Source: an uncultured Candidatus Saccharibacteria bacterium (GTDB lineage Bacteria > Patescibacteriota > Minisyncoccia > Phycocordibacterales > UBA9973). Taken from it: a stretch of DNA of 64,000 nt. Made by a program: the position numbers and the translations under genes. This document shows, in pieces, positions 1,558-22,063 of the stretch. The stretch is from assembly GCA_964404925.1 (NCBI GenBank), contig CAYOLW010000002.1, positions 38,995 to 102,994 on the forward strand. Direction: 5' to 3'. How positions within the stretch are numbered: position 1 is the first letter of the stretch; every line of letters starts with the position of its first letter. The notes beneath the pieces were generated by a model, which was not told the origin of the DNA, ran no database searches, and saw only the letters and a list, made by a program, of their open reading frames with translations.

Positions 1558-2316
1558 TCAAATTAGGTCTTCGAGCACGGCTAATTCTTCTTTGGTATTT
1601 GGTTGTAGCCCTTCTAATACACTGGCAACGGGTACTGCCAATACTGTTTTATTTTGTTCAAAAGCAGCATGGATTAAATCTGTTAGGTAGTATTCTTGCT
1701 GGGCATTTTCATTCCTTATTTTTTCAATATTTTGCCACAGCCATTTTGCATCAAAGGCATAAATTGCTGGATTTACTTCGGTAATGTTTTTTTCTTCATC
1801 GGTGGCGTCTTTGTATTCAACAATTTTCTCAACTTTGCCATCTGTGTCGCGGACTATTCTGCCAAAATGTAGCATACCACTACGCCACTCGTTAAAATCT
1901 GGTAGTTTGACTGTACCTAAAGTTATCGTAGCGTTTTTGCCGGTGTGTTCGTCTACTATATTGGATATAGTCTCGGTTGAGATTAGGGGTTGATCCGTTG
2001 ATAGTACCAGTATGGTATGATGTGTGTCGTTGGTTAAGTCTTGGGCTGATTTTACTGCGTGGCCAGTACCTAATTGTTCTTGTTGTACTGCATAAATAAA
2101 GTCTGAACCTATTCTATCCATTACTTCTTCTTTTTTATGTCCGACAACTATTATGGGTTTGTGCACCAAATCAAGCCTCTGTAGCGTATCTAAAATATGC
2201 CTAAGGAAAGGTTTGTTTTTTAATTCGGCCAAGGCTTTCGGCGTGTCGCCGCCCATCCTTTTGCTTTTACCAGCAGCTAGGACTATGATTTGAAGATTGT
2301 TGGTATTTACGGTCAT
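1558..2316 (-). CDS. sugar-nucleotide pyrophosphorylase, GlmU N-terminal uridylyltransferase domain only (no left-handed beta-helix acetyltransferase part)
   Basis: LAAGKSKRMGGDTPK and LGTGHAV motifs match the GlmU/nucleotidyltransferase fold. At 252 aa it lacks the hexapeptide-repeat domain. Confidence 0.7.
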   Translation of the reverse strand: MTVNTNNLQIIVLAAGKSKRMGGDTPKALAELKNKPFLRHILDTLQRLDLVHKPIIVVGHKKEEVMDRIGSDFIYAVQQEQLGTGHAVKSAQDLTNDTHHTILVLSTDQPLISTETISNIVDEHTGKNATITLGTVKLPDFNEWRSGMLHFGRIVRDTDGKVEKIVEYKDATDEEKNITEVNPAIYAFDAKWLWQNIEKIRNENAQQEYYLTDLIHAAFEQNKTVLAVPVASVLEGLQPNTKEELAVLEDLI

Positions 2317-2352
2317 GATATTAAGGTACCATTTTTAAATAAAAAATAAAGC

Positions 2353-2922
2353 ATGGAAGAACATAATGATTTAGAAATAATAGAAGAGCACATTGCAGGT
2401 AATGAAAAAGCCTTTGCTGTATTGGTGAATAGGTACTTCAAAATAGTCTATCGTTATTCATTGTCTTGGCAAAAGGACTCTACCTTAGCCGAAGATGCTA
2501 CTCAAGAAACCTTTCTAAAGGTCTGGAAAAAGTTAAATACATTTGACACTGCAGGTTCTTTCAAATCTTGGATATTACGTATAACGAGAAATACTAATAT
2601 TGATATTTTACGTAAAAAGAAATCTTTCAATTTTACCGAGCTTGGTGTTAATGATGAAGATAACTTCGTTGAATCAATAGAGAGTACAGATCCGTTGCCA
2701 GATGAGGTTTTTGCCCATATAGAGGACAAAGAAGTTTTGCGTTCAATGTTGGAAAATTTATCCCTTCAAGAAAGGGAAGTTATTAGGCTGCGTTACGGTG
2801 AGGATATGTCCTTTGAAGAAATTGCTAATGTTCTAGATAAGAATCTAAACACAGTAAAGAGTTTAAATAGGAGAGGCTTGCTAAAGCTTCGGGAGCTTAA
2901 GGTGCAACTTAATTATAATTAA
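2353..2922 (+). CDS. ECF-type sigma-70 family RNA polymerase sigma factor
   Basis: 189 aa. Region 2 reads ATQETFLKVWKK...FKSWILRITRN; region 4 HTH reads MSFEEIANVLDKNLNTVKSLNRRG. Confidence 0.8.
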   Translation: MEEHNDLEIIEEHIAGNEKAFAVLVNRYFKIVYRYSLSWQKDSTLAEDATQETFLKVWKKLNTFDTAGSFKSWILRITRNTNIDILRKKKSFNFTELGVNDEDNFVESIESTDPLPDEVFAHIEDKEVLRSMLENLSLQEREVIRLRYGEDMSFEEIANVLDKNLNTVKSLNRRGLLKLRELKVQLNYN

Positions 2923-2935
2923 CTTCGTATATTTA

Positions 2936-3328
2936 TTGGTTATGAATTCAAAATACAACAACTTGTTTAATACCGAACCTAGAGAGGGCTTAGCTACCGA
3001 TATTTTGGCCTATGTTAGAAAGTCAGAGCAGAGAAGTGCCAAGGCTCGCTTTTTTGGCTTGGCTTTTTTGTCTTTGATTTTGTTCGGTGTTTTATCAATG
3101 GCGGCTATTTATCTATGGGGTGAAATGCAGACAACTGGTTTTATAGATTATTTTAGATTATTACTTGGTGGAGCAATAAGTAATTTCTGGGTAGAACTTA
3201 CTTTAGCATTACTTGAATCCTTGCCAGCATTTTATTTATTACTTTTCTTTTCAGTCTTAGTTTCTTTAATCAGTTCTATTAGGTTTACTTTACGTAATTA
3301 TTATTTAACCAGAATATCATTTAGCTAA
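2936..3328 (+). CDS. membrane protein, possible anti-sigma factor (assigned by position only)
   Basis: 130 aa with several hydrophobic helices, immediately downstream of the ECF sigma gene. No recognisable motif. Confidence 0.4.
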   Translation: MVMNSKYNNLFNTEPREGLATDILAYVRKSEQRSAKARFFGLAFLSLILFGVLSMAAIYLWGEMQTTGFIDYFRLLLGGAISNFWVELTLALLESLPAFYLLLFFSVLVSLISSIRFTLRNYYLTRISFS

Positions 3329-3329
3329 T

Positions 3330-3788
3330 ATGCAAGAAATAAAAAATAGTATTAAAAAGGTTTTACAGTCTAAATTATGGCACCATGCTATAACAGGTGT
3401 TTTTTGTTTACTCATATTAATAATAGTTTTCCAAGTTGGAGTGTTGGTGGGTATGCGCAAGGGTAATTTTGCCGGTAGATATGCAGATAATTATTATGAT
3501 AATTTTGGAACACGTGGAATGATGCATCCGAATAATTTACCGAATGCTCACGGTACTGTAGGGCGAATACTCAGTATAGATTTACCAGAGATTGTTGTTT
3601 CTGATAGAGATCAAGTAGAAAAGGTAATTGTAACAAACGAAGAGACTATGGTTAAACACGCTCGGGATAGCATTAAATTGGAAGATTTAAAAGTTGATGA
3701 TTTTGTGATAGTTATTGGTATGCCTGGAGAGGATGGAAAAATAACTGCTAAATTTATTCGCCACATGCCCAAACCTTTCAATAAATAA
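3330..3788 (+). CDS. membrane-anchored hypothetical protein
   Basis: 152 aa with one N-terminal TM helix, start coupled to the stop of the upstream gene; product unknown. Confidence 0.45.
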   Translation: MQEIKNSIKKVLQSKLWHHAITGVFCLLILIIVFQVGVLVGMRKGNFAGRYADNYYDNFGTRGMMHPNNLPNAHGTVGRILSIDLPEIVVSDRDQVEKVIVTNEETMVKHARDSIKLEDLKVDDFVIVIGMPGEDGKITAKFIRHMPKPFNK

Positions 3789-3797
3789 TACTTATAC

Positions 3798-5441
3798 ATG
3801 AAAAACATACTAGAAAAAATAAAAATTTTTGTTCGTGCTCATAAAATATGGTCAATTGTTATTTTGATAATTATTGTCTTCTTGGGTTATAAACTTTACG
3901 GACAAATTGCTGGAGATACGAGTGCGAATAAATACGTACTAGGTGCTGTACAAAAGGGAACAATAGTTGCTTCTGTTTCTGCTAGCGGTCAGGTTGAGTC
4001 TGGAGACCAGATAGATCTCAAAGCTAAGGTAACAAGTGATGTTCGTTATATTGGAGTAAAAGCTGGTGCCAGTGTACGCCGAGGACAAACGTTGTTTAGT
4101 TTTGATGCTAGAGATGCACAGAAGTCTGTCCGCGATGCTGAGACCAACCTAGAAACAGCTAAACTGGAATTAGAGAAACTAAGAGAAATACCAGATGATA
4201 TAGACGTGTTATCTATTAAACAAGCTATCAAGGACGCCGAAACAGATAAAACCGATGCTGCAGATGATGTATCGGCAGCTTGGCGTAAACTTCTTAATAC
4301 TTCTGTAGTGGCTGATCCAGTAAATGCCAACAGCAGTTATACTGCGCCCACCGTTACGGGAACATATATCTTGGATAAAGAGATGGATATAAATATTAAT
4401 GTATACCAAACAGGCGAGGGTGCGTATTATAATGCATATAGTACTCCTTCTGGAGTGTTCACTTTCTCTGGTCAGGTTTCTACCTCTGTGGCACAGGTGC
4501 TAGGTAATACTGGTTTGTATATAAAGTTCTCAAGCAGTAGTGCCAGTCAGCCTGCTTGGATAATAAGTCTACCGAATAAATCCGTTACAGCTTATGAGAC
4601 TAATTTAAAAAGTTATCAAGATACCTTAGACGAACAGAAAAAAGTAGATGATGCTTCTGCCTTAACCATAGCCCAAAAGAATCAAGAATTAGATGAGCTA
4701 TACAGTCCAGACCCGCTTGATGTCCGTACCAAGGAATTAGCTATTAAAAAAGCAGAAGACGATCTCACGGATGCTAAAGCCAAATTATCTGATTATTATG
4801 TATATGCACCATTTGATGGAGTGATGGCTAATATTGATGCCAAGGTAGGTGAATCACCATCCAGTCCTTTGGGTTCTATTATTACGAACAACAAAGTAGC
4901 TGTGCTTTCAATGAATGAAGTTGACGTAGCAAAAATTAATTTAGGTCAATCAGCCACCATGACTTTTGATGCAATTGATGGATTGTCTCTGACTGGTAGA
5001 GTTGTAGAAATCGATCAGCAAGGCACTGTGAGCCAAGGTGTTGTTTCTTATTCAGTGAAGATTGCTTTCGATACAGATGATGCCCAAATAAAACCGGGTA
5101 TGAGTGTCGAGGCTGCAATAATTACTGAATCAAAAACTGATGTATTGTATATTCCAGCCAGTGCTATTAAAACGCGCAACAACACGAGCTATGTTGAAGT
5201 TTTTGAACCCGCATTAACAGTAACTGAGGCTGAATCTATTGCTGGCATAGAATCTGAAGAAAAACCTGTGCAGATTGATGTTGTGGTAGGTATTACTGAT
5301 GACACTAATACGGAAATAATTTCTGGTTTGTCCGAAGGACAACAAATAGTAACAAGAACTGTCTCAGCTACTGCTGCTAAAACCACCACTGCGCCGAGTC
5401 TGATTGGAGGCAGCAGCAGTCGTGGTCTCGGTGGAAGATAA
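3798..5441 (+). CDS. HlyD/MacA-like periplasmic adaptor subunit of an ABC efflux system
   Basis: 547 aa: N-terminal TM anchor, a long coiled-coil/lipoyl-like region, and a beta-barrel-like C-terminus. Directly followed by ABC ATPase and FtsX-type permease genes. Confidence 0.7.
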   Translation: MKNILEKIKIFVRAHKIWSIVILIIIVFLGYKLYGQIAGDTSANKYVLGAVQKGTIVASVSASGQVESGDQIDLKAKVTSDVRYIGVKAGASVRRGQTLFSFDARDAQKSVRDAETNLETAKLELEKLREIPDDIDVLSIKQAIKDAETDKTDAADDVSAAWRKLLNTSVVADPVNANSSYTAPTVTGTYILDKEMDININVYQTGEGAYYNAYSTPSGVFTFSGQVSTSVAQVLGNTGLYIKFSSSSASQPAWIISLPNKSVTAYETNLKSYQDTLDEQKKVDDASALTIAQKNQELDELYSPDPLDVRTKELAIKKAEDDLTDAKAKLSDYYVYAPFDGVMANIDAKVGESPSSPLGSIITNNKVAVLSMNEVDVAKINLGQSATMTFDAIDGLSLTGRVVEIDQQGTVSQGVVSYSVKIAFDTDDAQIKPGMSVEAAIITESKTDVLYIPASAIKTRNNTSYVEVFEPALTVTEAESIAGIESEEKPVQIDVVVGITDDTNTEIISGLSEGQQIVTRTVSATAAKTTTAPSLIGGSSSRGLGGR

Positions 5442-5445
5442 TCCA

Positions 5446-6129
5446 ATGATAGAAATAAAAAATATAAATAAAACATACGGCAGTGGGGAATCTGCTTTTC
5501 AAGCATTAAAGGGTGTAAGTTTTAAAATTGAAGATGGTGAATTTGTAGCCATTATGGGTCCTTCTGGTTCAGGTAAAAGCACATTGATGCATATACTTGG
5601 AGCATTGGATACTCCGACTTCGGGGACTTATTTATTAGACGGGAAAGATGTGTCTACCATGTCTGAAGACGAACTAGCAGATATCAGACGAGAGAAAATT
5701 GGCTTTGTATTTCAATCTTTTAACCTTCTACCTCGTACAACGGTACTGCGCAATGTAGCCTTGCCGTTAGTCTATGAAGGAGTAGATGAGAAAGAAAGAA
5801 ACACTCGCGCTCGCGATGCGCTTGCCTCCGCTGGACTTAGCGAAGAATATTTCTCCCATCTTTCTAATCAATTATCTGGTGGGCAGATTCAGCGTGTGGC
5901 TATCGCTCGCGCCCTTGTGAACAACCCATCCATTGTATTGGCAGATGAGCCAACAGGTAACCTAGATTCAAAGACTGGTGAAATAGTGTTGGGTACTTTC
6001 GAAAAATTAAATCGACAATTTAAAAGAACAATTGTGCTGATTACTCACGAGCAGGATGTGGCCCTGCATGCGGACAGAATTATCTTTATCAAAGACGGAG
6101 CTGTACTAAGCGATAAAAAAATAAAATGA
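5446..6129 (+). CDS. ABC transporter ATP-binding protein, MacB/LolD/FtsE family
   Basis: Walker A GPSGSGKST, signature LSGGQIQR, Walker B LADEPTGNLD. I placed the start at the internal Met (MIEIKNINKTYG); the longer frame overlaps the upstream gene. Confidence 0.85.
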   Translation: MIEIKNINKTYGSGESAFQALKGVSFKIEDGEFVAIMGPSGSGKSTLMHILGALDTPTSGTYLLDGKDVSTMSEDELADIRREKIGFVFQSFNLLPRTTVLRNVALPLVYEGVDEKERNTRARDALASAGLSEEYFSHLSNQLSGGQIQRVAIARALVNNPSIVLADEPTGNLDSKTGEIVLGTFEKLNRQFKRTIVLITHEQDVALHADRIIFIKDGAVLSDKKIK

Positions 6130-7349
6130 GAACTATCGATATTTTAGAAGAAACATATAGTGCGCTTTTTTCCAACAAGGTCCGATCTGGGTTGACCATG
6201 CTCGGTATTGTTATTGGTATTAGTTCAGTGATTGCTATGACGGCTATCGGAGGTGGGGCACAGAAATCAATCGAAGCCAATATCCAGTCGATTGGTGCGA
6301 ACCTTATTACTGTGTATCCCGGTGCGCAGAGGGGTCCTGGTGTGCAGGTTTCAGGTGGACGAGGCTCAGCCAAAACATTGACCCTAAAAGACGCCGAATC
6401 AATCCAAAGTGAAGTATCTGGGGTCAAGGCTGTGTCACCAGAAGTCCAAGGCCGGTACCAAATCACCGCCAAGGGAACCAATACTAATACTAGTGTTATT
6501 GGAGTTACTGCTGCATATGCAGAAGTACACAATGTTGAAATTGAAGAAGGTAATTTTGTTAGTGATTCACAGGCACAGAATGGATCCAAAGTTGCCGTTA
6601 TTGGTCCCTCGGTGCGGGATGATTTGTTTGGTGAAGGTGCATTTGCTATGGGGCAAGTTATAAAAATAAAGGGTTCTCAGTTTAAAGTTGTCGGTATAAC
6701 TAAATCAAAAGGAGGTACTGGATTTAATAATCAGGACGATATGATTTTTGTACCATTGGCTACTGCGCAGCGATATTTCGCAGGAGATGAATATTTGAAC
6801 TCTATTGGTGTATCAGCCGAAGATTCTGAAGTGTCTAGTGCTGTACAGGCAGACATAACTACACTTCTATTAGACAGACATAATATTTCTGATGCAGCTT
6901 TGGCCGACTTTTCAACCTTGAATCAGGCAGATATTATTGCAACAGCCTCGACCATTACCGGTACATTAACTATCTTGCTTGCAGCTATTGCAGGTATCTC
7001 ACTAGTGGTGGGTGGCATCGGTATTATGAATATGATGTTAACCACCGTTACCGAGCGTACTCGCGAGATTGGTCTGCGTAAAGCCATCGGCGCCAAGAGG
7101 AGAGATATCAGTCGGCAATTTTTATATGAAGCTATGGCATTAACCATCGTGGGTGGAACTGTAGGGATATTGCTTGGGTGGGGGATATCGCTTGCTATTA
7201 CTCAGCTTGGAATTATTGCCACTGAAGTATCAATAAAATCTGTTTTGTTGTCTTTTGGAGTGTCAGCTACAATTGGTATTGTATTTGGATATTATCCAGC
7301 TAAAAAAGCTGCAAAGTTAAATCCAATAGATGCGCTACGGTATGAATAA
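6126..7349 (+). CDS. ABC transporter permease, MacB/FtsX family
   Basis: 407 aa with an N-terminal TM helix, a large periplasmic domain, and a C-terminal FtsX-like 3-TM bundle (ERTREIGLRKAIGA). Confidence 0.85.
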   Translation: MRTIDILEETYSALFSNKVRSGLTMLGIVIGISSVIAMTAIGGGAQKSIEANIQSIGANLITVYPGAQRGPGVQVSGGRGSAKTLTLKDAESIQSEVSGVKAVSPEVQGRYQITAKGTNTNTSVIGVTAAYAEVHNVEIEEGNFVSDSQAQNGSKVAVIGPSVRDDLFGEGAFAMGQVIKIKGSQFKVVGITKSKGGTGFNNQDDMIFVPLATAQRYFAGDEYLNSIGVSAEDSEVSSAVQADITTLLLDRHNISDAALADFSTLNQADIIATASTITGTLTILLAAIAGISLVVGGIGIMNMMLTTVTERTREIGLRKAIGAKRRDISRQFLYEAMALTIVGGTVGILLGWGISLAITQLGIIATEVSIKSVLLSFGVSATIGIVFGYYPAKKAAKLNPIDALRYE

Positions 7350-7377
7350 ATATTATTAATATTAAAAATAAAATTAT

Positions 7378-7818
7378 ATGAACAAAAAATATATTGGTTT
7401 GCTGGTAGCTATAGTATTGGTGGTAGGTGGAGGATCGTTCTGGAGTGGTTATGCTTATGGTCAATCTAAAACAAAATCCGGATTCCCCGGTGGAGCAGGG
7501 AGTATGTCTGGCCGGAATTTCGGTGGTGCAAATGGTGGCCCCTCTCAGCCTCGCAACAGATCCGGTCTGGGCGGATTTATCTCTGGTGAAGTTTTGTCAA
7601 AAGATGAAAAAAGCTTAACTATTAAATTACAAGATGGTGGTTCCAGAATTGTGCTCATTGGTGGCGAGACTAAAGTTTCTAAATCAGCTGAGGGCAGTAT
7701 AGCTGATGTGTCTATTGGTGGGGCAGTGATGGTATCCGGTAAAGCAAATCCAGACGGTAGCCTGACGGCTGAGACAGTGCAATTGCGCCCAAACATGCCT
7801 CGTAGAGAAGTGCAATAG
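7378..7818 (+). CDS. Gly-rich secreted/membrane-anchored hypothetical protein
   Basis: Signal-anchor MNKKYIGLLVAIVLVVGGG followed by a Gly/Ser-rich low-complexity region. Confidence 0.5.
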   Translation: MNKKYIGLLVAIVLVVGGGSFWSGYAYGQSKTKSGFPGGAGSMSGRNFGGANGGPSQPRNRSGLGGFISGEVLSKDEKSLTIKLQDGGSRIVLIGGETKVSKSAEGSIADVSIGGAVMVSGKANPDGSLTAETVQLRPNMPRREVQ

Positions 7819-7844
7819 ATATTGATATTACAAAATATAAAAAA

Positions 7845-7869
7845 TAAAAAGCCCCGAGAGGGCTTTTTA
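7845..7869. terminator. bidirectional rho-independent terminator
   Basis: AAAAGCCC-cgaga-GGGCTTTTT hairpin, with an A-run on one side and a T-run on the other, sitting between convergent genes. Confidence 0.7.
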
Positions 7870-8316
7870 TAATTCTAGTTCTAGCATGACTGCTGTGTAG
7901 AGGATTTTGTCGTTTTTTTGTACGTCGGCGACCATATAGCCACGCTTTAATTTAAGCCTCAGCATTCGGTCGGAAACATTGTAGACTTTGGATAGCATTT
8001 TCTTGAATCCATTTTTCCTGGCATAATCCTCGGCCAGGTCCATTAATTCGGTGGCAATCCGATGGCCCCTGTATTCAGGTAATACTCCTAGAATCCAACT
8101 GTAGAAATATTCACCCTTGGGATAGCCTACGAAGTAACCGACTATTTGACCTTGGTCGAGCGCTACAAATACAGCAGATTCATCTACGCTCAAGCGTGAT
8201 TCGAATTCAGATAGCTCGTACGGCTTCCAGTCGTACACACCGTCAAATACTTTGAAATTAACTTCTGCTATTTCCGGCAACCTATCTAGCCCAACCTGTT
8301 TGAATTCTATGTCCAT
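7867..8316 (-). CDS. GNAT family N-acetyltransferase
   Basis: 149 aa; acetyl-CoA-binding region around GHRIATELMDLAEDYARKNG. Confidence 0.7.
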   Translation of the reverse strand: MDIEFKQVGLDRLPEIAEVNFKVFDGVYDWKPYELSEFESRLSVDESAVFVALDQGQIVGYFVGYPKGEYFYSWILGVLPEYRGHRIATELMDLAEDYARKNGFKKMLSKVYNVSDRMLRLKLKRGYMVADVQKNDKILYTAVMLELEL

Positions 8317-8346
8317 AAAATTATTATAACAAACAATTTTAAATCA

Positions 8347-8544
8347 TTATAAACCGCTCAATCCTCCAATATAGCTACTCATAAAGAAGGGAACAGCAAA
8401 CACCAGTCCTATTATGGGTAATACAACTGTGAATATCGTAATCCAAAAAATCATTTTGAAATAGCGCCTGATCTTCTCTACAGATTTATATATGGCATCT
8501 ATCTTTTGTGCTTGTTCTTCAATCTTTTGTTCAAGTTTTTCCAT
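8347..8544 (-). CDS. small membrane protein, hypothetical
   Basis: 65 aa: N-terminal coiled-coil-like segment plus C-terminal TM helices. Confidence 0.35.
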   Translation of the reverse strand: MEKLEQKIEEQAQKIDAIYKSVEKIRRYFKMIFWITIFTVVLPIIGLVFAVPFFMSSYIGGLSGL

Positions 8545-8604
8545 ATTTAGATTATAACAAAAAACAAAATGCGCCGCTTCTTTTGGGGGAATCTGTGCTA
8601 AAAT

Positions 8605-8982
8605 TTGATTATGAAAAAGACAAAAATTGTTTATTTTGGATCTACGGTGCTGCTTTCACTCATGATGCTAGCAGCAGCGTTTATGGAGCTTTCTTTTAAT
8701 CCTGAAGCAGTGGCTACTATTACGGGGCTTGGATACCCGATGTATTTTATCACCATCATCGGCGTTGCCAAAATATTGGGCGTCATAGGCATCTGGCAGA
8801 AGCAGGTCGCATTTCTACGAGAGTGGGCCTATGCAGGATTCTTTATCGACTTTATTGGGGCGCTTGCCTCACACCTTGCGCATGGTGATGGTCCCGAGAA
8901 ATACGGCGCAGCCGTTTTTGCACTTGTTCTCGTAACTGCCTCATATTGGTCATACAGAAAACTCCAAGGGGTACAGGGATAA
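8605..8982 (+). CDS. DoxX-like family membrane protein
   Basis: 125 aa, 4 TM, with the glycine/aromatic pattern typical of DoxX. Confidence 0.6.
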   Translation: MIMKKTKIVYFGSTVLLSLMMLAAAFMELSFNPEAVATITGLGYPMYFITIIGVAKILGVIGIWQKQVAFLREWAYAGFFIDFIGALASHLAHGDGPEKYGAAVFALVLVTASYWSYRKLQGVQG

Positions 8983-8989
8983 AAGTTTT

Positions 8990-9187
8990 TTATTTATTTC
9001 TGTTTTTAAACCAGTAAAGAATCAAGAAAGTATTAAGAAATAATCCTATAATAAGAGTAAAGAATGATATATTCTCTGACAAAGCTAGGCGCCTTAAATC
9101 ACTTGAGTCAAAAACAAAAGGCATTAAAATCTTTAAATTTATAAAAGTATAAACAGCTAGAACGATAACATCTAAATTCTTTTTCAT
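8990..9187 (-). CDS. small membrane protein, hypothetical
   Basis: 65 aa with two hydrophobic helices; weak call. Confidence 0.3.
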   Translation of the reverse strand: MKKNLDVIVLAVYTFINLKILMPFVFDSSDLRRLALSENISFFTLIIGLFLNTFLILYWFKNRNK

Positions 9188-9222
9188 ACCTCTATTATAT
9201 ATAAAAAATTAACTTATTTGTT

Positions 9223-9258
9223 AAAAATAAAAACAGCAACTTTCGTTGCTGTTTTTAT
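9223..9258. terminator. bidirectional rho-independent terminator
   Basis: A-run, ACAGCAAC-tttc-GTTGCTGT, then T-run. Lies downstream of the minus-strand three-gene operon. Confidence 0.7.
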
Positions 9259-9367
9259 GCTGTGAGCGTTCAGCAGATAGAACCAAACTGATTCCTTGCA
9301 TTGTAAGCTCGGTTTTAATATTTCTATTAATTTACTTCAACCCTTCTTGTGCGTATAGATAATATGA

Positions 9368-10042
9368 TTATACTAATATGTATTTAATAAATTCTCTACC
9401 AGTGTTAGTAAGATCATAATCCTGATAGTTCGAACCATTATATGTTGGAATAGTATAAGCTCTTAAAATTCCAATGTTGATTAAATTTGTTTCTGCCTCA
9501 GCCCAAATTTCACGGATATTTGAACCGGGTGATAAATTATATTTACCAGGATTATCATTTGAATCCTTAACTAAATAAGTTTTTAGATGCTCCGAAAGCT
9601 TGTTATTCTTATATACTATAGTGTTCGATAATTTATCTAAAAGATGCAACAGTTCTAAACCTTCCTTACTAACTAACGAAAGAAGGCTAATCATTCGTTC
9701 AATCTCAAACTGTTCTAGGTCTGCTGACTGCGTGTATCCAAGAAATATTTGCCTGATTATTTGTCGTTTCTTCTCATTACGTTCTGATATATATTTTTCA
9801 AAAGAATACACAAACGCATCTTGAAAGTTTTCAGATTTCAAAATTTCCTCACTAAAAATACTTGGGTTATCCCTAACCATTTCAACCCACTCAAGAGCTC
9901 TATTTTGTCTTAATTTTAACCCAGCACCATGCAATGCTTTAGTTAGACCCCAAGCAATATTTAACCCTGGGAGATTTGATGCAATTTGGTCTGCAATAAC
10001 AAGTGCTGAATCTTTTAAAATTTGTTGATCTTTTTCGTTCAT
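9368..10042 (-). CDS. hypothetical protein, third gene of the OLD-nuclease operon
   Basis: 224 aa with no motif I recognise. Its start is tightly coupled to the stop of the upstream gene (6-nt gap). Confidence 0.55.
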   Translation of the reverse strand: MNEKDQQILKDSALVIADQIASNLPGLNIAWGLTKALHGAGLKLRQNRALEWVEMVRDNPSIFSEEILKSENFQDAFVYSFEKYISERNEKKRQIIRQIFLGYTQSADLEQFEIERMISLLSLVSKEGLELLHLLDKLSNTIVYKNNKLSEHLKTYLVKDSNDNPGKYNLSPGSNIREIWAEAETNLINIGILRAYTIPTYNGSNYQDYDLTNTGREFIKYILV

Positions 10043-10048
10043 AATAAA

Positions 10049-10366
10049 TTATTTCAAAATCCCATCTCCGAAAAGAAATACAATAACAGCGACTATTATC
10101 GTTATCGCTGCAGTCCAAGCAGATATTCGGATACTTTTTTCCTGTATTTTTTGAGACTGTTCTTGAGACATCAAACTGTCCCTCATAGCTTTTTCTTGAA
10201 GCCCTAGAGAGTCTAGAGAATTTCTCTCTAGCATGGTAACTAGGGTTCCACACTGGCTGCAAAGGAATAGAGAATTACTCTTCCTGTCGCCACTGTCAGC
10301 ATCCATATGTAGTTCCCAGTCATGATTACAATTTTTAAATTTTGCTCTATATTGTCCTATTCCCAT
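10049..10366 (-). CDS. small zinc-ribbon protein with C-terminal transmembrane anchor
   Basis: 105 aa: CNHDW...CSQCG Cys/His cluster, then a C-terminal hydrophobic helix ISAWTAAITIIVAVIVFLF. Confidence 0.55.
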   Translation of the reverse strand: MGIGQYRAKFKNCNHDWELHMDADSGDRKSNSLFLCSQCGTLVTMLERNSLDSLGLQEKAMRDSLMSQEQSQKIQEKSIRISAWTAAITIIVAVIVFLFGDGILK

Positions 10367-10371
10367 AATAG

Positions 10372-11823
10372 TTATATTGTTTTAGGTAGTAAGTTTTTTA
10401 ACAACTTTTCTCCAAGGTAATTATAGATACTGCCTTCAGTAGTAAAATCTGTCGTTTCATTCCAAGTTAATGAAGCAATTGTTTTACCAACTATAACTTC
10501 CCATGGTTTATCTATACCCATTATACCCAGAACCAATATTCTTAAAGATTTTATCTTTAAATTTTTTCTATCATAATCAGCTTGTTTGAAAGCAATCATA
10601 TCTTCAAACTGAGGGTGCGATTTTCCAGTTTTTTCAGTAATCCACTCATCCATTTTTCCTTGTAGAACTTCCCATGTATTGCCCAACGAAGACAAGACCT
10701 CATTAGTTAATAATAAGTTTTCAGCGCTATAACACTTTAATTTTAATTTTATTATAGGTAAATCATCTGAAAGATCAGTTTCTGGTGTATCATCTCGATC
10801 GCGCAAGGAGTAGGCCCTTGCTTTATCATAGACACTTTCAATGATATTTTTTACTTCGGTTTCAAAAGGACCTATTTCTTCTACGCTTCCACAAACACAA
10901 GGATAAATTTTAATTTTCCCTTGTGCCGTCCTGACTGCTTGTTGCCATATTCGCTCGTCATCCTCACCCTCAACAAGTAACACAGGGGCTTCGTTAAAAA
11001 TGTTTGATAGAGGATGTGCACCAAATATAGGCAAAACCTTTTTGTAAATATCTGATATTGGCTTAAACTCAAGGTCCTTTTGTCCAGGAGACAGAAAACT
11101 TAAATTAACATCAGTATACGACTCTAGTGCACCCAATATTGCTGTACTGTGTGTAACTACGATAACCTTGAAGTTATTTTCCTCAACCAGATTTTTTAAA
11201 AAATGCATTAAACGTACCTGTAAATCGGGATGAAGATGCACATCTGGCTCATCTAAAAATAAAAAATTATCTTTTCCAGCAACACATTCTTTACTAAATA
11301 CTAAACATTCAATGCCCAATGATATTAATTCGCTTTCTCCGCTACTTATTGATTCTGGTCCTATTTCTGTCGTAGTTCCTTTGTTATAAATCTTGAAAGT
11401 ATTATCATTTCTTTTTATTTCTATATTATCTAATAGAGAATTTATTTTTGTTATGTAAAGGTCGAAATTATAATCTGTATCTGCTCTTTTGGCACCTTCA
11501 ATTTCTCTTAGAACTAACCACTCTAATTTTTTATATTGGGCGACACTTTGTTGTTTAAAGTTTGGTGTTTGATTTCTACGTCTTTGACCTGGAAGCCAGT
11601 TTACATCGCTTGCTAATGAATTTTCCATTCCTGCATCATAATTCAAAGAGCCACCGCGTTCAGGTGATATATATTTAGTTTTACCATAAGTTTCATTATG
11701 GGAAGATATGTGTTGTTCAACTTTCCTAATGAAAGTACTTTTGCCAGAACCATTCTTACCTAAAACGATATTTATCTTGCTCAGTCCTTTTAATGTGTAT
11801 CCATTAGCATCTAATATATCCAT
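10372..11823 (-). CDS. OLD-family nuclease: ABC-type ATPase domain fused to a Toprim domain
   Basis: Walker A GKNGSGKST, signature-like ISSGESELISLG, Walker B/H-loop FLFLDEPDVHLHP, switch VIVVTHS. The C-terminal Toprim glutamate sits in VLLVEGEDDERIW and the DxD motif in LRDRDD. Confidence 0.75.
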   Translation of the reverse strand: MDILDANGYTLKGLSKINIVLGKNGSGKSTFIRKVEQHISSHNETYGKTKYISPERGGSLNYDAGMENSLASDVNWLPGQRRRNQTPNFKQQSVAQYKKLEWLVLREIEGAKRADTDYNFDLYITKINSLLDNIEIKRNDNTFKIYNKGTTTEIGPESISSGESELISLGIECLVFSKECVAGKDNFLFLDEPDVHLHPDLQVRLMHFLKNLVEENNFKVIVVTHSTAILGALESYTDVNLSFLSPGQKDLEFKPISDIYKKVLPIFGAHPLSNIFNEAPVLLVEGEDDERIWQQAVRTAQGKIKIYPCVCGSVEEIGPFETEVKNIIESVYDKARAYSLRDRDDTPETDLSDDLPIIKLKLKCYSAENLLLTNEVLSSLGNTWEVLQGKMDEWITEKTGKSHPQFEDMIAFKQADYDRKNLKIKSLRILVLGIMGIDKPWEVIVGKTIASLTWNETTDFTTEGSIYNYLGEKLLKNLLPKTI

Positions 11824-11875
11824 AGGTATTAATTATACTTTAAATTAGTTAAATTTATAGCATCGAAGATACATA

Positions 11876-11906
11876 CAAAAACAGCCCCAATCTGGGCTAT
11901 TTTTGT
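11876..11906. terminator. bidirectional rho-independent terminator downstream of tRNA-Glu
   Basis: CAAAAAC-AGCCCCAATCTGGGCT-ATTTTTG. Confidence 0.6.
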
Positions 11907-11929
11907 ATGCTACTCGTGCTAGCTGTTGA

Positions 11930-12004
11930 TGGTGACCTCACGGAGAATCGAACTCCGATTAACGGATTGAAAACCCGTTGTCCTAACCGTTAGACGATGA
12001 GGCC
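11930..12004 (-). tRNA. tRNA-Glu (anticodon UUC), CCA encoded
   Basis: Reverse complement GGCCTCATCGTCTAACGGTTAGGACAACGGGTTTTCAATCCGTTAATCGGAGTTCGATTCTCCGTGAGGTCACCA, with anticodon loop TTTTCAA. Confidence 0.8.
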
Positions 12005-12145
12005 GTTTTTAAATTTTAAACAATAGATTCTCGCCCTTCCGGAGCCTTGGCGTAGTAAGGGTAGGGCTTAGGAGAGATATTACAACATTTCTATAAATTT
12101 AGCAAAACTTTTAAAAGATTTTTGCTTGTGTTCTTGTTGTTTAAC

Positions 12146-12165
12146 ATATTAGAATATGCTAATAT
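12146..12165. promoter_or_regulatory. inverted-repeat operator candidate (ATATTAG-aatatg-CTAATAT), 7 nt upstream of the arsR-family gene
   Basis: Perfect 7 bp arms read directly. ArsR/SmtB repressors commonly autoregulate through such palindromes overlapping their promoter. Confidence 0.45.
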
Positions 12166-12171
12166 GTATTT

Positions 12172-12426
12172 ATGAATAGAAATAACCTTTATAAAGCTTT
12201 TTCAAGTGAGCACAGGCTCAAACTTCTGCGGTGTTTGTCAAAGCCAAAGAACGTGACTGAATTATTAGATAATTGTTCTTTTACTCAGTCGGCTCTGTCT
12301 CAGCATTTAAAAGTGCTTAGAGATGCGGGTGTGGTTACTACCAGTAGGCAGGGCAAAGAAATGGTGTATAGCGTCGCTAACAAAAAGGTCACGCAAATTA
12401 CTGACCTATTACTAGATTTTAAATAA
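12172..12426 (+). CDS. ArsR/SmtB family transcriptional regulator
   Basis: 84 aa winged HTH: LKLLRCL...VTELLDNCSFTQSALSQHLKVLRDAGVV. Confidence 0.8.
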   Translation: MNRNNLYKAFSSEHRLKLLRCLSKPKNVTELLDNCSFTQSALSQHLKVLRDAGVVTTSRQGKEMVYSVANKKVTQITDLLLDFK

Positions 12427-12442
12427 AAAATAAATACTTATT

Positions 12443-13435
12443 ATGAAAAACAATAAATATACAATGTTCGGTGTTGTGGGATTGGTTGTCATTGCGATAG
12501 CTTCTTTGTCTTTTATGGGCAGTCCCAAGAAGCTTGCTGGTGCAGAGTTTATTGATAAATACACAAATACTCCTAATGCTATGTTGATAGACGTGCGAAC
12601 TCCGGGTGAATTTAATACTGGCCATATTGACCAGGCAATAAATATTGATTTTGAAAATTCTACTTTTGTCTCAGAAATAAAAAAGCTAGATACAACAAAA
12701 ACGTATTTTGTATATTGCCGTTCCGGCAACAGGTCAGGGCAAGCTATTTCTGTTATGAAATCCAATGGTATAAAAAACATTTATGAATTAAATGGGGGTA
12801 TTATCTCAAACACAAAAACAATAAATCTTGTGACATTGAATAACTCTGAATACGTTGTCGATCCTAGTGACATGTTAAACGGTAACACCCTTGTCTCTGG
12901 TATAAAAAAATCTGAGCTTTCAGAGAAAGAAATAGCAGGAATTATTTTGATGCGTGAAGAAGAGAAGCTTGCCCGTGATGTATATACTACTCTCGGCAAT
13001 ATTTGGGGGAATAGGATTTTTTCAAATATTGCAGCTTCCGAGCAGACACACATGGATGCCGTCAGAGTTCTGCTGGATAGATATGCAATCACCGATCCTG
13101 TTGTTAATGATACTGTTGGGTATTTTACCTCGGTGTCTATGCAGGATTTGTATAAATTTCTAATAGAAAAAGGTAAAGTTTCAATTATCGATGCTCTTAT
13201 CGTCGGTGCAACTGTTGAAGATTTAGATATTAGAGACTTAGAAACATTAAAAAAAGAAACACAAAAAGAAGACATTTTAGTTACATATAATAATCTACAG
13301 AAAGGATCTAGGAATCATTTGCGTGCTTTTGTTAAAAACATTCAGACAAATGGTGGCACATATACACCTCAATATATTAATGACAGTGACTATGATTTAA
13401 TCATTAATTCAGCTCAAGAAAGAGGCAGAAATTAG
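12443..13435 (+). CDS. rhodanese-domain protein with a C-terminal ferritin-like (possibly DUF2202) domain
   Basis: Signal-anchor, then rhodanese fold with catalytic loop CRSGNRS. The C-terminal helical domain (EEEKLARDVY...EQTHMDAV) looks ferritin-like, but that assignment is uncertain. Confidence 0.6.
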   Translation: MKNNKYTMFGVVGLVVIAIASLSFMGSPKKLAGAEFIDKYTNTPNAMLIDVRTPGEFNTGHIDQAINIDFENSTFVSEIKKLDTTKTYFVYCRSGNRSGQAISVMKSNGIKNIYELNGGIISNTKTINLVTLNNSEYVVDPSDMLNGNTLVSGIKKSELSEKEIAGIILMREEEKLARDVYTTLGNIWGNRIFSNIAASEQTHMDAVRVLLDRYAITDPVVNDTVGYFTSVSMQDLYKFLIEKGKVSIIDALIVGATVEDLDIRDLETLKKETQKEDILVTYNNLQKGSRNHLRAFVKNIQTNGGTYTPQYINDSDYDLIINSAQERGRN

Positions 13436-19813: not shown

Positions 19814-22063
19814 ATGTCAAATCAATCAATACCTCAAAAAGTATTTGATGCCGAAGTGAATCAAATTTGCGAGCTAGCTCCTGGTGTGCGCAAAATTACT
19901 CTAAAAATTCAGGAACCCTTTGTTTTTCAAGAAGCCCAATATATATGGTTGGAGCTTGTTTGTAATCCAGCTGATCCAAAAGGTAATCGACGAGCTTTTT
20001 CTATTTTTAATCAAAACAACAAAGACAATATGATTGAAATTGTTGTGCGAGTGAGTGTTAGTTTGTATAAAAAAAAATTATTTAGTTTAAAAATTGGGGA
20101 CAAGGTATTGATTCACGGTCCTTTTGGTAGTACTTTCAAGTTGGACAATATTGAAACACAACCTTGCCCAACTAAAATAGTTTTTATTGCTGGTGGAGTA
20201 GGCATCTCTGTTTTTTGGCCTACTTTGCGAAAAATATCACAAGATAAAATACCAATCTTGTGCCATTTGGTTTATTTAAACAAAGATAGAAAGTCAACTC
20301 CTTTTCTAGTTGAATTAGAAGAGTTTAAAAAACAAAATTCTTTTTTTAATTATAATATTGATTTCGGCTATTTTAATGTCGATGATTTATTAAAAATAAA
20401 TTTTTCTTTGGACGTAGATGTGGAGTGGTGGATTTCGGGTCCGCAGGGGATGGTAAATCATGTTTTTGGTGAATTAATTAAACAAAAGTTTTCTAAAAGA
20501 AAAATGCGATTTGAAAATTATTATCCCAACGACCCTAACTCTTTGACTTTTGATAAAATTAATCAATTACTTGAATCTACTGAAAGTAATATCTTTGTTC
20601 AAGCTATTCAAAATTCAACTAACCATACGGTTATAACCGATCCGGATGGCAAAATTTTGTTTGCTAACAAAGCTACTTTAAATATCACTCAATTTTCAGC
20701 TGATGAATTAATTGGACAAACTCCTAGAATTTGGGGTGGAATGATGGATGTAGATTTTTATAAATCTTTTTGGGGGAAGATTAAATCTGGTCAACGTTTT
20801 CAGGGTGAAGTTTTAAATCGTAGAAAATCTGGTCAATATTATAATGCAATTGCACACATTAATCCTATTTTAAATCACAATAAAGATATTGTTGGTTATA
20901 TTGGCACCGAAGAAGATGTCAGTTATATTCGAGAACAGGAAAAGCAGGCTACTTTGTATAAAAATCGTTTAGAGATGGCAACTCAATCTGCTAATTTGGG
21001 GGTTTGGGAGTGGAATTTGATAAAAAAGGAAATTGTTTGGAACGATAATATGTATCAAATATATGGTTTAATGAAAGATTCTTTTGAATTAACCGATAAT
21101 AATTGGCGTAATTGCATACATGTTGACGATGTAGAGATGCGAGATAAAAATATAAATGCGTTGATTGAAAAAAAAGAGTCTGTTCCTATTGATTTTCGTA
21201 TAAATTTAAAAAACGGTAAAATTCGTTATATTCGTTCTTATGCTTTATGTGAAAAAAATAGTAATAATCAAATAGAGAAGTTGATTGGTGTTAATTTAGA
21301 TATCACTAGAGAGAGGGAAGTTGATAAAGTCAAAACGGAGTTTGTCTCGTTGGCTTCACACCAATTACGTACACCATTATCAATTATCAATTGGTATACA
21401 GAAACTTTGTTAAGTAAAAAGATTGGTAGTATTAATACTAATCAAGAAAAATATTTGTCCGAAATATATAAAAATAGTCAAAAAATGACTAGTTTATTGA
21501 ATGCCTTACTAGATATTTCTCGCTTAGATTTAGGCACTCTTGTTGTTGAAACGAAACAAATCGATATTTGTATTCTTATACAAGAATGTTTAAAGGATTT
21601 GCAATATATCTTTTTATCTAAAGATATTCATCTTGTAGAAAAATACGAAATAAAAAAATTTATCTGCCTACTAGATGAAAATATTTTTCGTATTATTGTG
21701 CAAAATATTTTATCTAATGCTGTAAAATATTCAAAAAATAATAGTAAAATTTTAGTTAAAATCAAAAAAAATAATCCCGGTGAAATCTTGGGTGGTCGGA
21801 AGATAAACTCTAAAAGTATTTCAATTACCGTTGAAGATCATGGTATCGGTATTGCTAAAAAAGATGAACAAAAGGTTTTTTCTAAGCTTTTCAGAGCAGA
21901 AAATGCAAAAAAATATTCAACCGAAGGAACTGGCTTGGGTTTGTATTTAGTTAAATCAGTGGTGGAACATTCTGGTGGAATGGTCTGGTTTGAATCTACG
22001 GAGGGATTAGGAACAATTTTTTATATTGTTTATCCAGAAACAGGAATGCGATCGATAAAATAA
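19814..22063 (+). CDS. sensor histidine kinase with N-terminal ferredoxin-NADP-reductase-like FAD/NAD(P)-binding module, two PAS domains, HisKA and HATPase_c
   Basis: FNR-type motifs RAFSI (RxYS), GPFG, FIAGGVGISVFWP, ISGPQGM. PAS region follows. H-box FVSLASHQLRTPLS; G-boxes DHGIGI and GTGLGL. Confidence 0.75.
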   Translation: MSNQSIPQKVFDAEVNQICELAPGVRKITLKIQEPFVFQEAQYIWLELVCNPADPKGNRRAFSIFNQNNKDNMIEIVVRVSVSLYKKKLFSLKIGDKVLIHGPFGSTFKLDNIETQPCPTKIVFIAGGVGISVFWPTLRKISQDKIPILCHLVYLNKDRKSTPFLVELEEFKKQNSFFNYNIDFGYFNVDDLLKINFSLDVDVEWWISGPQGMVNHVFGELIKQKFSKRKMRFENYYPNDPNSLTFDKINQLLESTESNIFVQAIQNSTNHTVITDPDGKILFANKATLNITQFSADELIGQTPRIWGGMMDVDFYKSFWGKIKSGQRFQGEVLNRRKSGQYYNAIAHINPILNHNKDIVGYIGTEEDVSYIREQEKQATLYKNRLEMATQSANLGVWEWNLIKKEIVWNDNMYQIYGLMKDSFELTDNNWRNCIHVDDVEMRDKNINALIEKKESVPIDFRINLKNGKIRYIRSYALCEKNSNNQIEKLIGVNLDITREREVDKVKTEFVSLASHQLRTPLSIINWYTETLLSKKIGSINTNQEKYLSEIYKNSQKMTSLLNALLDISRLDLGTLVVETKQIDICILIQECLKDLQYIFLSKDIHLVEKYEIKKFICLLDENIFRIIVQNILSNAVKYSKNNSKILVKIKKNNPGEILGGRKINSKSISITVEDHGIGIAKKDEQKVFSKLFRAENAKKYSTEGTGLGLYLVKSVVEHSGGMVWFESTEGLGTIFYIVYPETGMRSIK

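Follow-up and report, generated by a model that had tools for sequence, protein, structure and literature searches.

Does the ATPase-nuclease gene described here act alone, or is it one part of a dedicated defense system formed with the two small genes that follow it? The locus lies in a 64,000-nucleotide (nt) stretch of DNA from an uncultured Candidatus Saccharibacteria bacterium (GenBank assembly GCA_964404925.1, contig CAYOLW010000002.1, positions 38,995 to 102,994 of the forward strand), which we call the window and whose numbering applies to all coordinates unless a comparison locus is named. It consists of three co-oriented open reading frames (ORFs) of 483, 105, and 224 amino acids (aa), referred to as genes A, B, and C. 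A first-pass annotation of this DNA had read them as a three-gene anti-phage system built around an OLD-family nuclease, in which the small proteins stood in for a helicase. The ORFs and their tight spacing (gaps of 5 nt between A and B and 6 nt between B and C) were borne out, and the three-gene system was not. We favor, with a probability of roughly 0.55, a reading in which gene A is itself the functional unit, i.e., a gene that moves horizontally and encodes, in one self-contained polypeptide, an ATP-dependent Toprim nuclease of the OLD/PARIS supergroup, most likely an anti-phage effector of the abortive-infection type. The three genes and the domains of A are as follows (pLDDT, predicted local distance difference test; TM, transmembrane).

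10372 to 11823, minus strand: gene A, 483 aa
11089 to 11823, minus strand: residues 1 to 245 of A, compact ABC ATPase domain with K28, Q92, S160-E165, D191/E192, and H225
10729 to 10989, minus strand: residues 279 to 365 of A, Toprim domain, apparently of the DUF4435/AriB type, with E285 (EGEDDE) and D342-x-D344
10375 to 10728, minus strand: residues 366 to 483 of A, helical C-terminal domain (pLDDT, ~87 to 96) with invariant columns
10049 to 10366, minus strand: gene B, 105 aa, tail anchored; CxH...CxxC metal site, conserved helix, and TM helix at the C terminus
9368 to 10042, minus strand: gene C, 224 aa, with a conserved N-terminal helical module and a C-terminal winged helix

Domain architecture of protein A

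Protein A joins an ABC ATPase (Walker A, GKNGSGKST; signature, SSGESE; Walker B/D-loop, FLFLDEPDVHLHP; H-loop, THS) to a Toprim domain with the motifs EGEDDE and RDRDD. An alignment of 26 relatives of A revealed that K28, D191/E192, H225, E285, D342, and D344 are invariant. The same holds for the segments GKNGxGKS (Walker A), Q92, SSGESE, DEPDVHLHPDLQ, and THS, for the linker FGAHPLSN, and for EGEDDER, D342-x-D344, and E368/N369. Pfam AAA_15/AAA_21 match the first ~230 residues at 6e-16. The AlphaFold model (pLDDT, 80) is composed of an ABC ATPase, a Toprim-type unit, and a confident helical C-terminal domain. Its Toprim-type unit runs beta-alpha-beta-alpha-beta-beta over residues 281 to 361, with E285 and D342/D344 at strand ends, and the Toprim assignment thus withstood structure prediction. 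Foldseek searches with the model returned the retron Eco8 OLD nuclease, GajA, PtuA, AriA, and Thermus OLD, all with similar scores, and the alignments to the Eco8 OLD nuclease and GajA were full length and covered both domains. The motifs, the invariant residues, the Pfam matches, and the predicted structure together confirm the ABC ATPase-Toprim architecture of the OLD/PARIS supergroup that had been proposed for A.

The helical C-terminal domain has conserved positions at E368, N369, W384, W394, H403, R419, K425, R428, W441, and E442 and, by analogy with AriB, may serve in dimerization or substrate binding. Two further invariant segments, both modeled with low confidence, lie elsewhere in the protein. 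They are PERGG (residues 54 to 58, window 11650 to 11664), which is part of an insert in the ATPase, and FGAHPLSN (residues 267 to 274, window 11021 to 11044), which links the ATPase to the Toprim domain. Both are possible interaction or switch elements.

Placement of A within the OLD/PARIS supergroup

The nuclease half of A was placed with sequence profiles. When the C-terminal half alone was compared with 5027 PADLOC models, the only matches were AriAB (7.5e-5) and AriB (1.2e-4). Among 46 diverse C-terminal halves (the window protein and 45 relatives), AriB matched 30, AriAB matched 26, and DUF4435 matched 18, and OLD or GajA Toprim models matched none at an E value of ≤0.01. For A as a whole, the best PADLOC model was the fused AriAB (PDLC02981, 1.7e-22), and Pfam DUF4435 gave a sub-threshold match to residues 279 to 378. 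The Toprim half of A did not match Pfam Toprim_OLD (PF20469), OLD-like_TOPRIM, or the PADLOC Old and GajA models. The PADLOC Old model matched residues 182 to 302 only, and the GajA models matched the ATPase part only. On the ATPase side, AriA is the best solved sequence relative (8ux9_B, 2e-9) and has the highest identity (23%) among the structural matches to A. The NCBIfam model retron_eff_Eco8 scored 32.5 bits against a cutoff of 250.

These results changed two of the earlier assignments. Since the Toprim half matches no nuclease-domain profiles other than AriB, AriAB, and DUF4435, the earlier statement that no DUF4435 protein was present is wrong in substance: what appears to be a DUF4435/AriB-type domain, with weak profile matches, is fused inside A. 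The OLD-family label holds for the supergroup architecture but not for the Toprim half, given the lack of any OLD or GajA Toprim profile match. From the profiles, we read A as a distinct, compact family within the OLD/PARIS supergroup, with an ATPase that appears nearest to AriA and a Toprim domain that appears nearest to DUF4435. Pfam, NCBIfam, and PADLOC v2 have no model that captures it at the family level.

Distribution and neighborhoods of the A family

A protein search with A yielded 1716 matches at an E value of ≤0.001, of which the best 120 are ~476 to 511 aa long and 57 to 97% identical to A. Full-length relatives occur in Patescibacteria, Proteobacteria, Bacteroidota, Actinomycetota, Cyanobacteria, Planctomycetota, Verrucomicrobiota, and other groups. 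Neighboring genes were surveyed in 80 species-level loci with full-length relatives (37 to 67% identity, one genome per species). Clustering of all ORFs within 5 kb at these loci showed that every neighbor family was present in five loci at most. The genes directly adjoining the A relatives on the same strand included those for HsdS (five times), HsdM, HsdR, GmrSD, ApeA, AbiJ, Shedu, and a KAP NTPase, along with transaldolase, ribonucleotide reductase, and gyrase B. In some loci, the A-family gene lies directly downstream of a type I HsdS specificity gene. An Escherichia coli member (WP_000868467.1), annotated as "AAA family ATPase," is full length and 35% identical to A. As a lone gene that is located between yfgI and guaA and next to an insertion sequence (IS) remnant, it was found in 28 of 5426 complete E. 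coli genomes, among them that of strain UPEC132 (NZ_CP040456.1; locus L101, positions 8965 to 10434).

Carriage by phages was considered and rejected: a search of 50,697 phage records gave no match to the A family, and predicted prophage contigs contained only five full-length matches to A and none to B or C. The two halves of A have diverged unevenly. Three relatives (P0051, P0070, and P0109) share 47 to 53% identity with the window protein across the ATPase half and 67 to 86% across the Toprim domain and tail, and most other members show the opposite trend. This pattern points to a mosaic family, probably generated by recombination between sensor and effector halves. The breadth of the family, the lack of a fixed neighbor, the lone E. 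coli gene, the rarity in phages, and the mosaic halves all fit a mobile, self-sufficient, single-gene unit of the defense type.

Small genes downstream of A

If A, B, and C formed one system, B and C should accompany A elsewhere. A tblastn search of the 80 A-family loci found B at a single locus (L006) and C at none, so the trio does not recur in the same order beside A homologs. The two small genes are lost stepwise already among close relatives. A relative 88% identical to A (L081 to L084) is followed by B after 5 nt and has no C, and a relative 81% identical (L116) stands alone. Two further relatives (P0070 and P0109), which share the C-terminal subtype of the window protein, also stand alone. 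The idea that B tracks this subtype was rejected, as P0070, P0109, and P0005 all belong to it and lack B. Genes matching A at 97%, B at 95%, and C at 99% identity were each found on a contig 5710 bp long, a shared contig size that suggests the presence of the full trio in a near-identical (97%) relative. B and C are each promiscuous and are also found apart from A, beside genes of other kinds. The trio represents a recent, local gene order rather than a conserved system. The A family can do without B and C, which are not required partners.

Related Patescibacteria have a variable spot beside Mur-ligase and penicillin-binding protein genes. It is occupied by A and B (L081), by A alone (L116), by a PIN gene and B (L098/L099), or by a gene for a 211-aa protein followed by B and C (L117). 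This spot looks like a defense hotspot with cassette exchange.

The B family comprises 40 clusters, all at least 57% identical and all from Patescibacteria. In their alignment, C13, H15, C36, and C39 are invariant, one helix is conserved, and a TM helix lies at the C terminus, in agreement with the zinc ribbon and C-terminal TM segment noted earlier for the 105-aa protein. By its sequence, B appears to be a tail-anchored zinc-ribbon protein encoded by a promiscuous accessory gene. The genes found upstream of B are listed below; the sample is small (about seven context types), and a metagenome scan centered on B gave five loci.

Window, L081, and L006: ATPase-Toprim gene
L098, L099, and L105: PIN_12/PIN_8 gene
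L097: gene for a DUF6804 membrane protein
L103 and L106: gene for a 113-aa protein of unknown function
L104: NUDIX gene, 94 nt away
L117: gene for a protein of 211 aa that contains an RNxxxH (HEPN-like) motif; C follows B
L094 to L096: no gene upstream; an interrupted C follows B

B lies 1 to 17 nt downstream, on the same strand, of the ATPase-Toprim, PIN, 211-aa HEPN-like, DUF6804, and 113-aa genes, and the B-C pair occurs in three settings (the window, L117, and L094). In L117 (positions 87 to 722), the 211-aa gene directly precedes the B-C pair with a gap of 1 nt and encodes ARNSLLHGH, an RNxxxH sequence as in HEPN RNases, the call being based on the motif only. In L094 to L096 and L102 (positions 4328 to 4990), where A is absent, the C-family gene after B can be aligned end to end in a single reading frame and yet was called as two genes of 45 and 169 aa. 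It must thus contain an internal stop, i.e., it is a pseudogene or reflects a sequencing or readthrough issue. Searches of PDB sequences with B, C, and the 211-aa partner gave no match.

The C family has 406 representatives at 50% identity. C matches no Pfam, PADLOC, or NCBIfam model, and the earlier statement that it has no recognizable domain therefore stands for the sequence libraries. It does not stand for the predicted structure (pLDDT, 83), in which an N-terminal helical module (residues 1 to 141), matching no known family or fold, is followed by a MarR/PadR-like winged helix.

9377 to 9598, minus strand: winged helix of C in the predicted model, residues ~149 to 222

C itself lacks a nuclease domain. 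Its relatives are found in defense contexts. In a recurrent operon (L085, positions 2509 to 10366; L091, positions 2235 to 9216), a helix-turn-helix gene is followed by genes for an HsdR-like helicase (829 to 850 aa), a C-family protein, and a fused N6_Mtase/Eco57I/Methylase_S protein (826 to 841 aa). The C-family gene is separated from the helicase and methylase genes by gaps of 2 to 3 nt, and one such locus continues with genes for a reverse transcriptase and for a PD-(D/E)xK protein. This operon resembles a restriction-modification (R-M) system in its gene content, with the C-family gene embedded in it. Another C-family gene follows a gene for an Mrr_cat protein, and yet another lies beside a DUF2726 nuclease gene in an island that also encodes GmrSD, an EcoRI methylase, and XhoI. 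In P0363 (514 aa), a C-family module (residues 35 to 278) is fused to a C-terminal Mrr_cat domain (23.7 bits; cutoff, 21), which ties the C family to PD-(D/E)xK nucleases. A relationship to Abi_alpha was unsupported, with three weak matches (E values of 0.005 to 0.018) among 73 members. C is thus a promiscuous gene found in defense contexts, and both B and C are Patescibacteria-restricted, unannotated small proteins that are recurrently attached to nucleases and R-M-like operons.

The operon and its surroundings

The operon is bordered by the following elements.

11930 to 12004, minus strand: tRNA-Glu(UUC) (ARAGORN; Rfam tRNA, 61 bits)
11872 to 11909: hairpin (inverted repeat) with 16-nt arms and a 6-nt loop and with A and T runs at its sides; matched on the plus strand by a terminator scan
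11832 to 11837, minus strand: TATAAT hexamer read from the sequence, 8 nt ahead of the start codon (ATG) of gene A
9227 to 9258: perfect hairpin (inverted repeat) with 14-nt arms and a 4-nt loop and with A and T runs at its sides

The tRNA gene shares the strand of gene A, lies 106 nt upstream of it, and is a context marker outside the system. The hairpin at 11872 to 11909 is a bidirectional terminator-like element that separates it from gene A, and the hairpin at 9227 to 9258 is a terminator-like element that closes the operon after C. The TATAAT hexamer, which was absent from the output of a two-hexamer promoter scan, is a possible -10 box, in which case the leader would be very short or missing. 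No obvious Shine-Dalgarno sequence was seen at A, B, or C. The three genes are probably cotranscribed. The G+C content is 0.31 to 0.35 in the operon and 0.40 to 0.44 in its flanks. The tRNA adjacency, low G+C content, and flanking hairpins reported by the first-pass annotation were all recovered; the defense island context that it had drawn from them was not. The neighbors in the window are ordinary genes (ArsR, rhodanese/DUF2202, DoxX, GNAT, and a HAD-like gene), and neither an integrase nor an att-like repeat of the tRNA end was found around the operon. The locus is therefore an isolated insertion of ~2.6 kb and not a defense island, and an integrative island at the tRNA, which was also considered, was rejected on the same two counts. 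An Rfam scan of positions 8500 to 12700 detected the tRNA only and no msr/msd noncoding RNA.

Farther along the window, positions 19814 to 22063 have the lowest G+C content (0.28 to 0.31) of the first 25 kb. The gene there, which is not a defense gene, encodes a 749-aa protein in which an FAD/NAD-binding oxidoreductase module is fused to PAS domains and a histidine kinase.

Proposed function and alternative readings

We consider A most likely an anti-phage effector because of its architecture, the PARIS, HEC-04, and OLD precedents, the defense-type company of the family, and its mosaic halves. Its defense function, nuclease activity and target, and ATP-driven dimerization are inferred by analogy. 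In this model, the compact ABC ATPase half would be a nucleotide-dependent sensor and switch and would probably form a head-to-head dimer on ATP, as ABC ATPases do. The ATPase would control the fused DUF4435-type Toprim domain, either in cis or across the ATP-bound dimer, and the Toprim domain would cut nucleic acid by metal-ion catalysis at E285/D342/D344. The target would be tRNA if the domain is AriB-like and DNA if it is OLD-like, and activation would lead to growth arrest or abortive infection. B and C would be small Patescibacteria genes that were added downstream of A one after the other and are cotranscribed with it.

Several observations weigh against this reading. The defense role of the A family is read from homology and neighborhood only, many of its loci lie amid housekeeping genes, and the window itself is not a defense island. 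The affinity to PARIS is weak, and the relationship, as judged from sequence comparison, is remote. DUF4435 (PF14491) scores 15.7 to 17.2 bits against a Pfam cutoff of 27 bits, the AriAB match spans 223 of 694 model positions (308 to 530), and a profile of the C-terminal half found no significant solved relative among the PDB sequences. In addition, hhalign comparison with two canonical AriB proteins from two-gene PARIS loci (L119 and L120) aligned only LVEGxDD, over 26 to 30 residues. The A-B arrangement also recurs in three A lineages (the window, L081, and L006), and this recurrence, together with the tight spacing of 5 to 6 nt, allows local functional coupling of A, B, and C.

The last point can be taken further. 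B, with or without C, may be a portable accessory module that serves whichever nuclease gene lies upstream, in which case the trio would act together here as a lineage-specific elaboration. B could then be a membrane-tethered zinc-ribbon regulator, antitoxin, or anchor, and C could be a winged-helix sensor or adaptor that binds nucleic acid. The close same-strand spacing of B behind genes of five kinds, with at least 57% identity of B maintained across contexts, the recurrence of the B-C pair, and the ties of C to nucleases through the Mrr_cat fusion and through HsdR-like, Mrr_cat, and DUF2726 neighbors all speak for such a module. However, B also has nonnuclease partners (the DUF6804 membrane protein and the NUDIX gene 94 nt off) and has no upstream gene in L094, the HEPN assignment is a motif match only, and the sampling is thin, with partnership read from gene order and not from physical contact. 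Most A-family genes, including the 81% identical one, lack both B and C. Taken together, these points leave the module a tentative proposal, possible but doubtful. A bolder version, which we regard as unlikely, would make B (sometimes with C) a previously unrecognized portable partner of interchangeable Patescibacteria nuclease toxins (Toprim, PIN, and HEPN-like), with the window locus as a lineage-specific three-part elaboration. For example, a membrane-tethered antitoxin or sensor could hold the nuclease in check until infection disturbs the membrane or brings in foreign DNA.

Two other explanations fare worse. A, with its OLD/PARIS fold, might be no immune gene at all but a housekeeping or mobile-element nuclease engaged in DNA repair or in element maintenance or addiction. 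The housekeeping neighbors in the window and the metabolic genes that flank several family loci are compatible with this, and the IS remnant, serine recombinases, and few prophage-predicted contigs would suit a selfish mobile gene. We nevertheless judge this improbable given the patchy distribution (as in E. coli), the horizontal spread across phyla, the positions directly after type I HsdS and beside other R-M and defense genes, and the mosaic of sensor and effector halves. Moreover, all characterized ABC ATPase-Toprim proteins of the supergroup described in the papers cited here are defense proteins. Least probable of all is the dedicated, conserved three-component OLD-associated system of the first-pass annotation, with small proteins in place of a helicase or reverse transcriptase. 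The co-orientation of the genes, their spacing, the hairpins on both sides, and the probable trio in the near-identical relative would fit it. Such a system is very unlikely in view of the near absence of B and C from the family loci, the stepwise loss in the 88% and 81% relatives, the occurrence of B and C without A, and the restriction of the trio to near-identical genomes.

If A is an effector as proposed, it adds a compact, widespread, and strongly conserved version to the single-chain ABC ATPase-Toprim proteins, an emerging recurrent anti-phage design, and the E. coli member makes the family a directly testable and tractable model. Few defense systems are recognized in Patescibacteria (candidate phyla radiation bacteria), for which the Patescibacteria-specific defense proteins LdgA/DdgA have been reported (PMC12366544). 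Should B and C prove to be regulators or adaptors, they would form a new, accessory level of immunity in a phylum that is still poorly understood; should they be mere hitchhikers, the locus would be an ordinary single-gene defense insertion.

Comparison with known defense systems

Gabija and retron Eco8 share the fold of ATPase plus Toprim effector with A. Their partners are absent here, as was noted earlier: no ORF in or beside the operon encodes a UvrD-like helicase (GajB), and no ORF in or near it encodes a reverse transcriptase. A three-component analogy with Lamassu/ABC-3C was also examined and dropped, as ABC-3C is Lamassu and neither B nor C is matched by a Pfam model for an ABC-3C middle or C-terminal component. 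For C, the nearest parallel is with Mrr-type type IV restriction enzymes, which combine a winged-helix DNA reader with Mrr_cat. C has a winged-helix end, one of its relatives is fused to Mrr_cat, and others adjoin Mrr_cat, DUF2726, or HsdR-like nucleases. Unlike these enzymes, C has no nuclease domain, and its reading of DNA, suggested by the model, is putative.

Class 1 OLD proteins (e.g., P2 Old and Thermus scotoductus OLD, 6P74) resemble A in being single polypeptides with an N-terminal ABC ATPase, a C-terminal Toprim domain, and no obligatory partner gene. Thermus OLD (6p74) matched the model of A in Foldseek at 8e-7, whereas the sequence match (1.2e-3) was confined to the ATPase. A is shorter than these proteins, lacks the OLD dimerization insert, and has a Toprim domain without an OLD-type profile match.

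In PARIS, AriA senses anti-restriction proteins, and the Toprim protein AriB cleaves tRNA-Lys and related tRNAs (PMC11464382 and PMC12409363). Merged single-chain AriAB clades also exist (PMC11464382). According to Burman et al. 2024 (PMC11464382), who cite Dot et al. 2023, PARIS is classed as OLD class 4. PARIS joins an AAA_15/AAA_21-type ABC ATPase to a DUF4435-type Toprim domain, as A appears to do, and its profiles are the nuclease-domain profiles that match the Toprim half of A. The location of some A-family members beside type I R-M genes would also fit the anti-anti-restriction logic of PARIS. The two differ in size: AriA and AriB together have ~770 aa (L119 and L120) and the AriAB model has 694 positions, compared with the 483 aa of A, and AriA has ~460 aa, compared with ~245 aa in the ATPase half of A, which leaves little room for AriA-sized insertions (IS1/IS2). 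Every PARIS-type score of A is below the curated cutoff, and the fused nuclease of A cannot leave its scaffold as AriB does.

HEC-04 (WP_044502283.1, 490 aa) is a validated single-gene ABC ATPase-Toprim defense protein in E. coli that is found in or near other defense systems, requires its Walker A lysine and Toprim E/DxD site for defense, and is toxic when induced (Payne et al., bioRxiv 10.1101/2024.01.29.577857). It resembles A in architecture and size (490 versus 483 aa). The K-to-E distance is 257 in both, the E-to-D distance is 56 in HEC-04 and 57 in A, and the DxD spacing is 2 in both. Its motifs LIEEIENGLHP, FVEDE, and IDGD correspond to LFLDEPDVHLHP, VEGEDDE, and RDRDD in A. Motif spacing had pointed to membership of A in the HEC-04 family, but hhalign ruled this out: the A-family profile aligned with HEC-04 residues 1 to 399 in the ATPase core only (probability, 52%; E value, 1.4e-4), the Toprim parts remained unaligned, and A belongs to a separate sequence family. 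Single-chain ABC ATPase-Toprim defense proteins are thus a known kind, represented by merged PARIS, class 1 OLD, and HEC-04. What is new in the A family is that it is unusually compact and unusually widespread.

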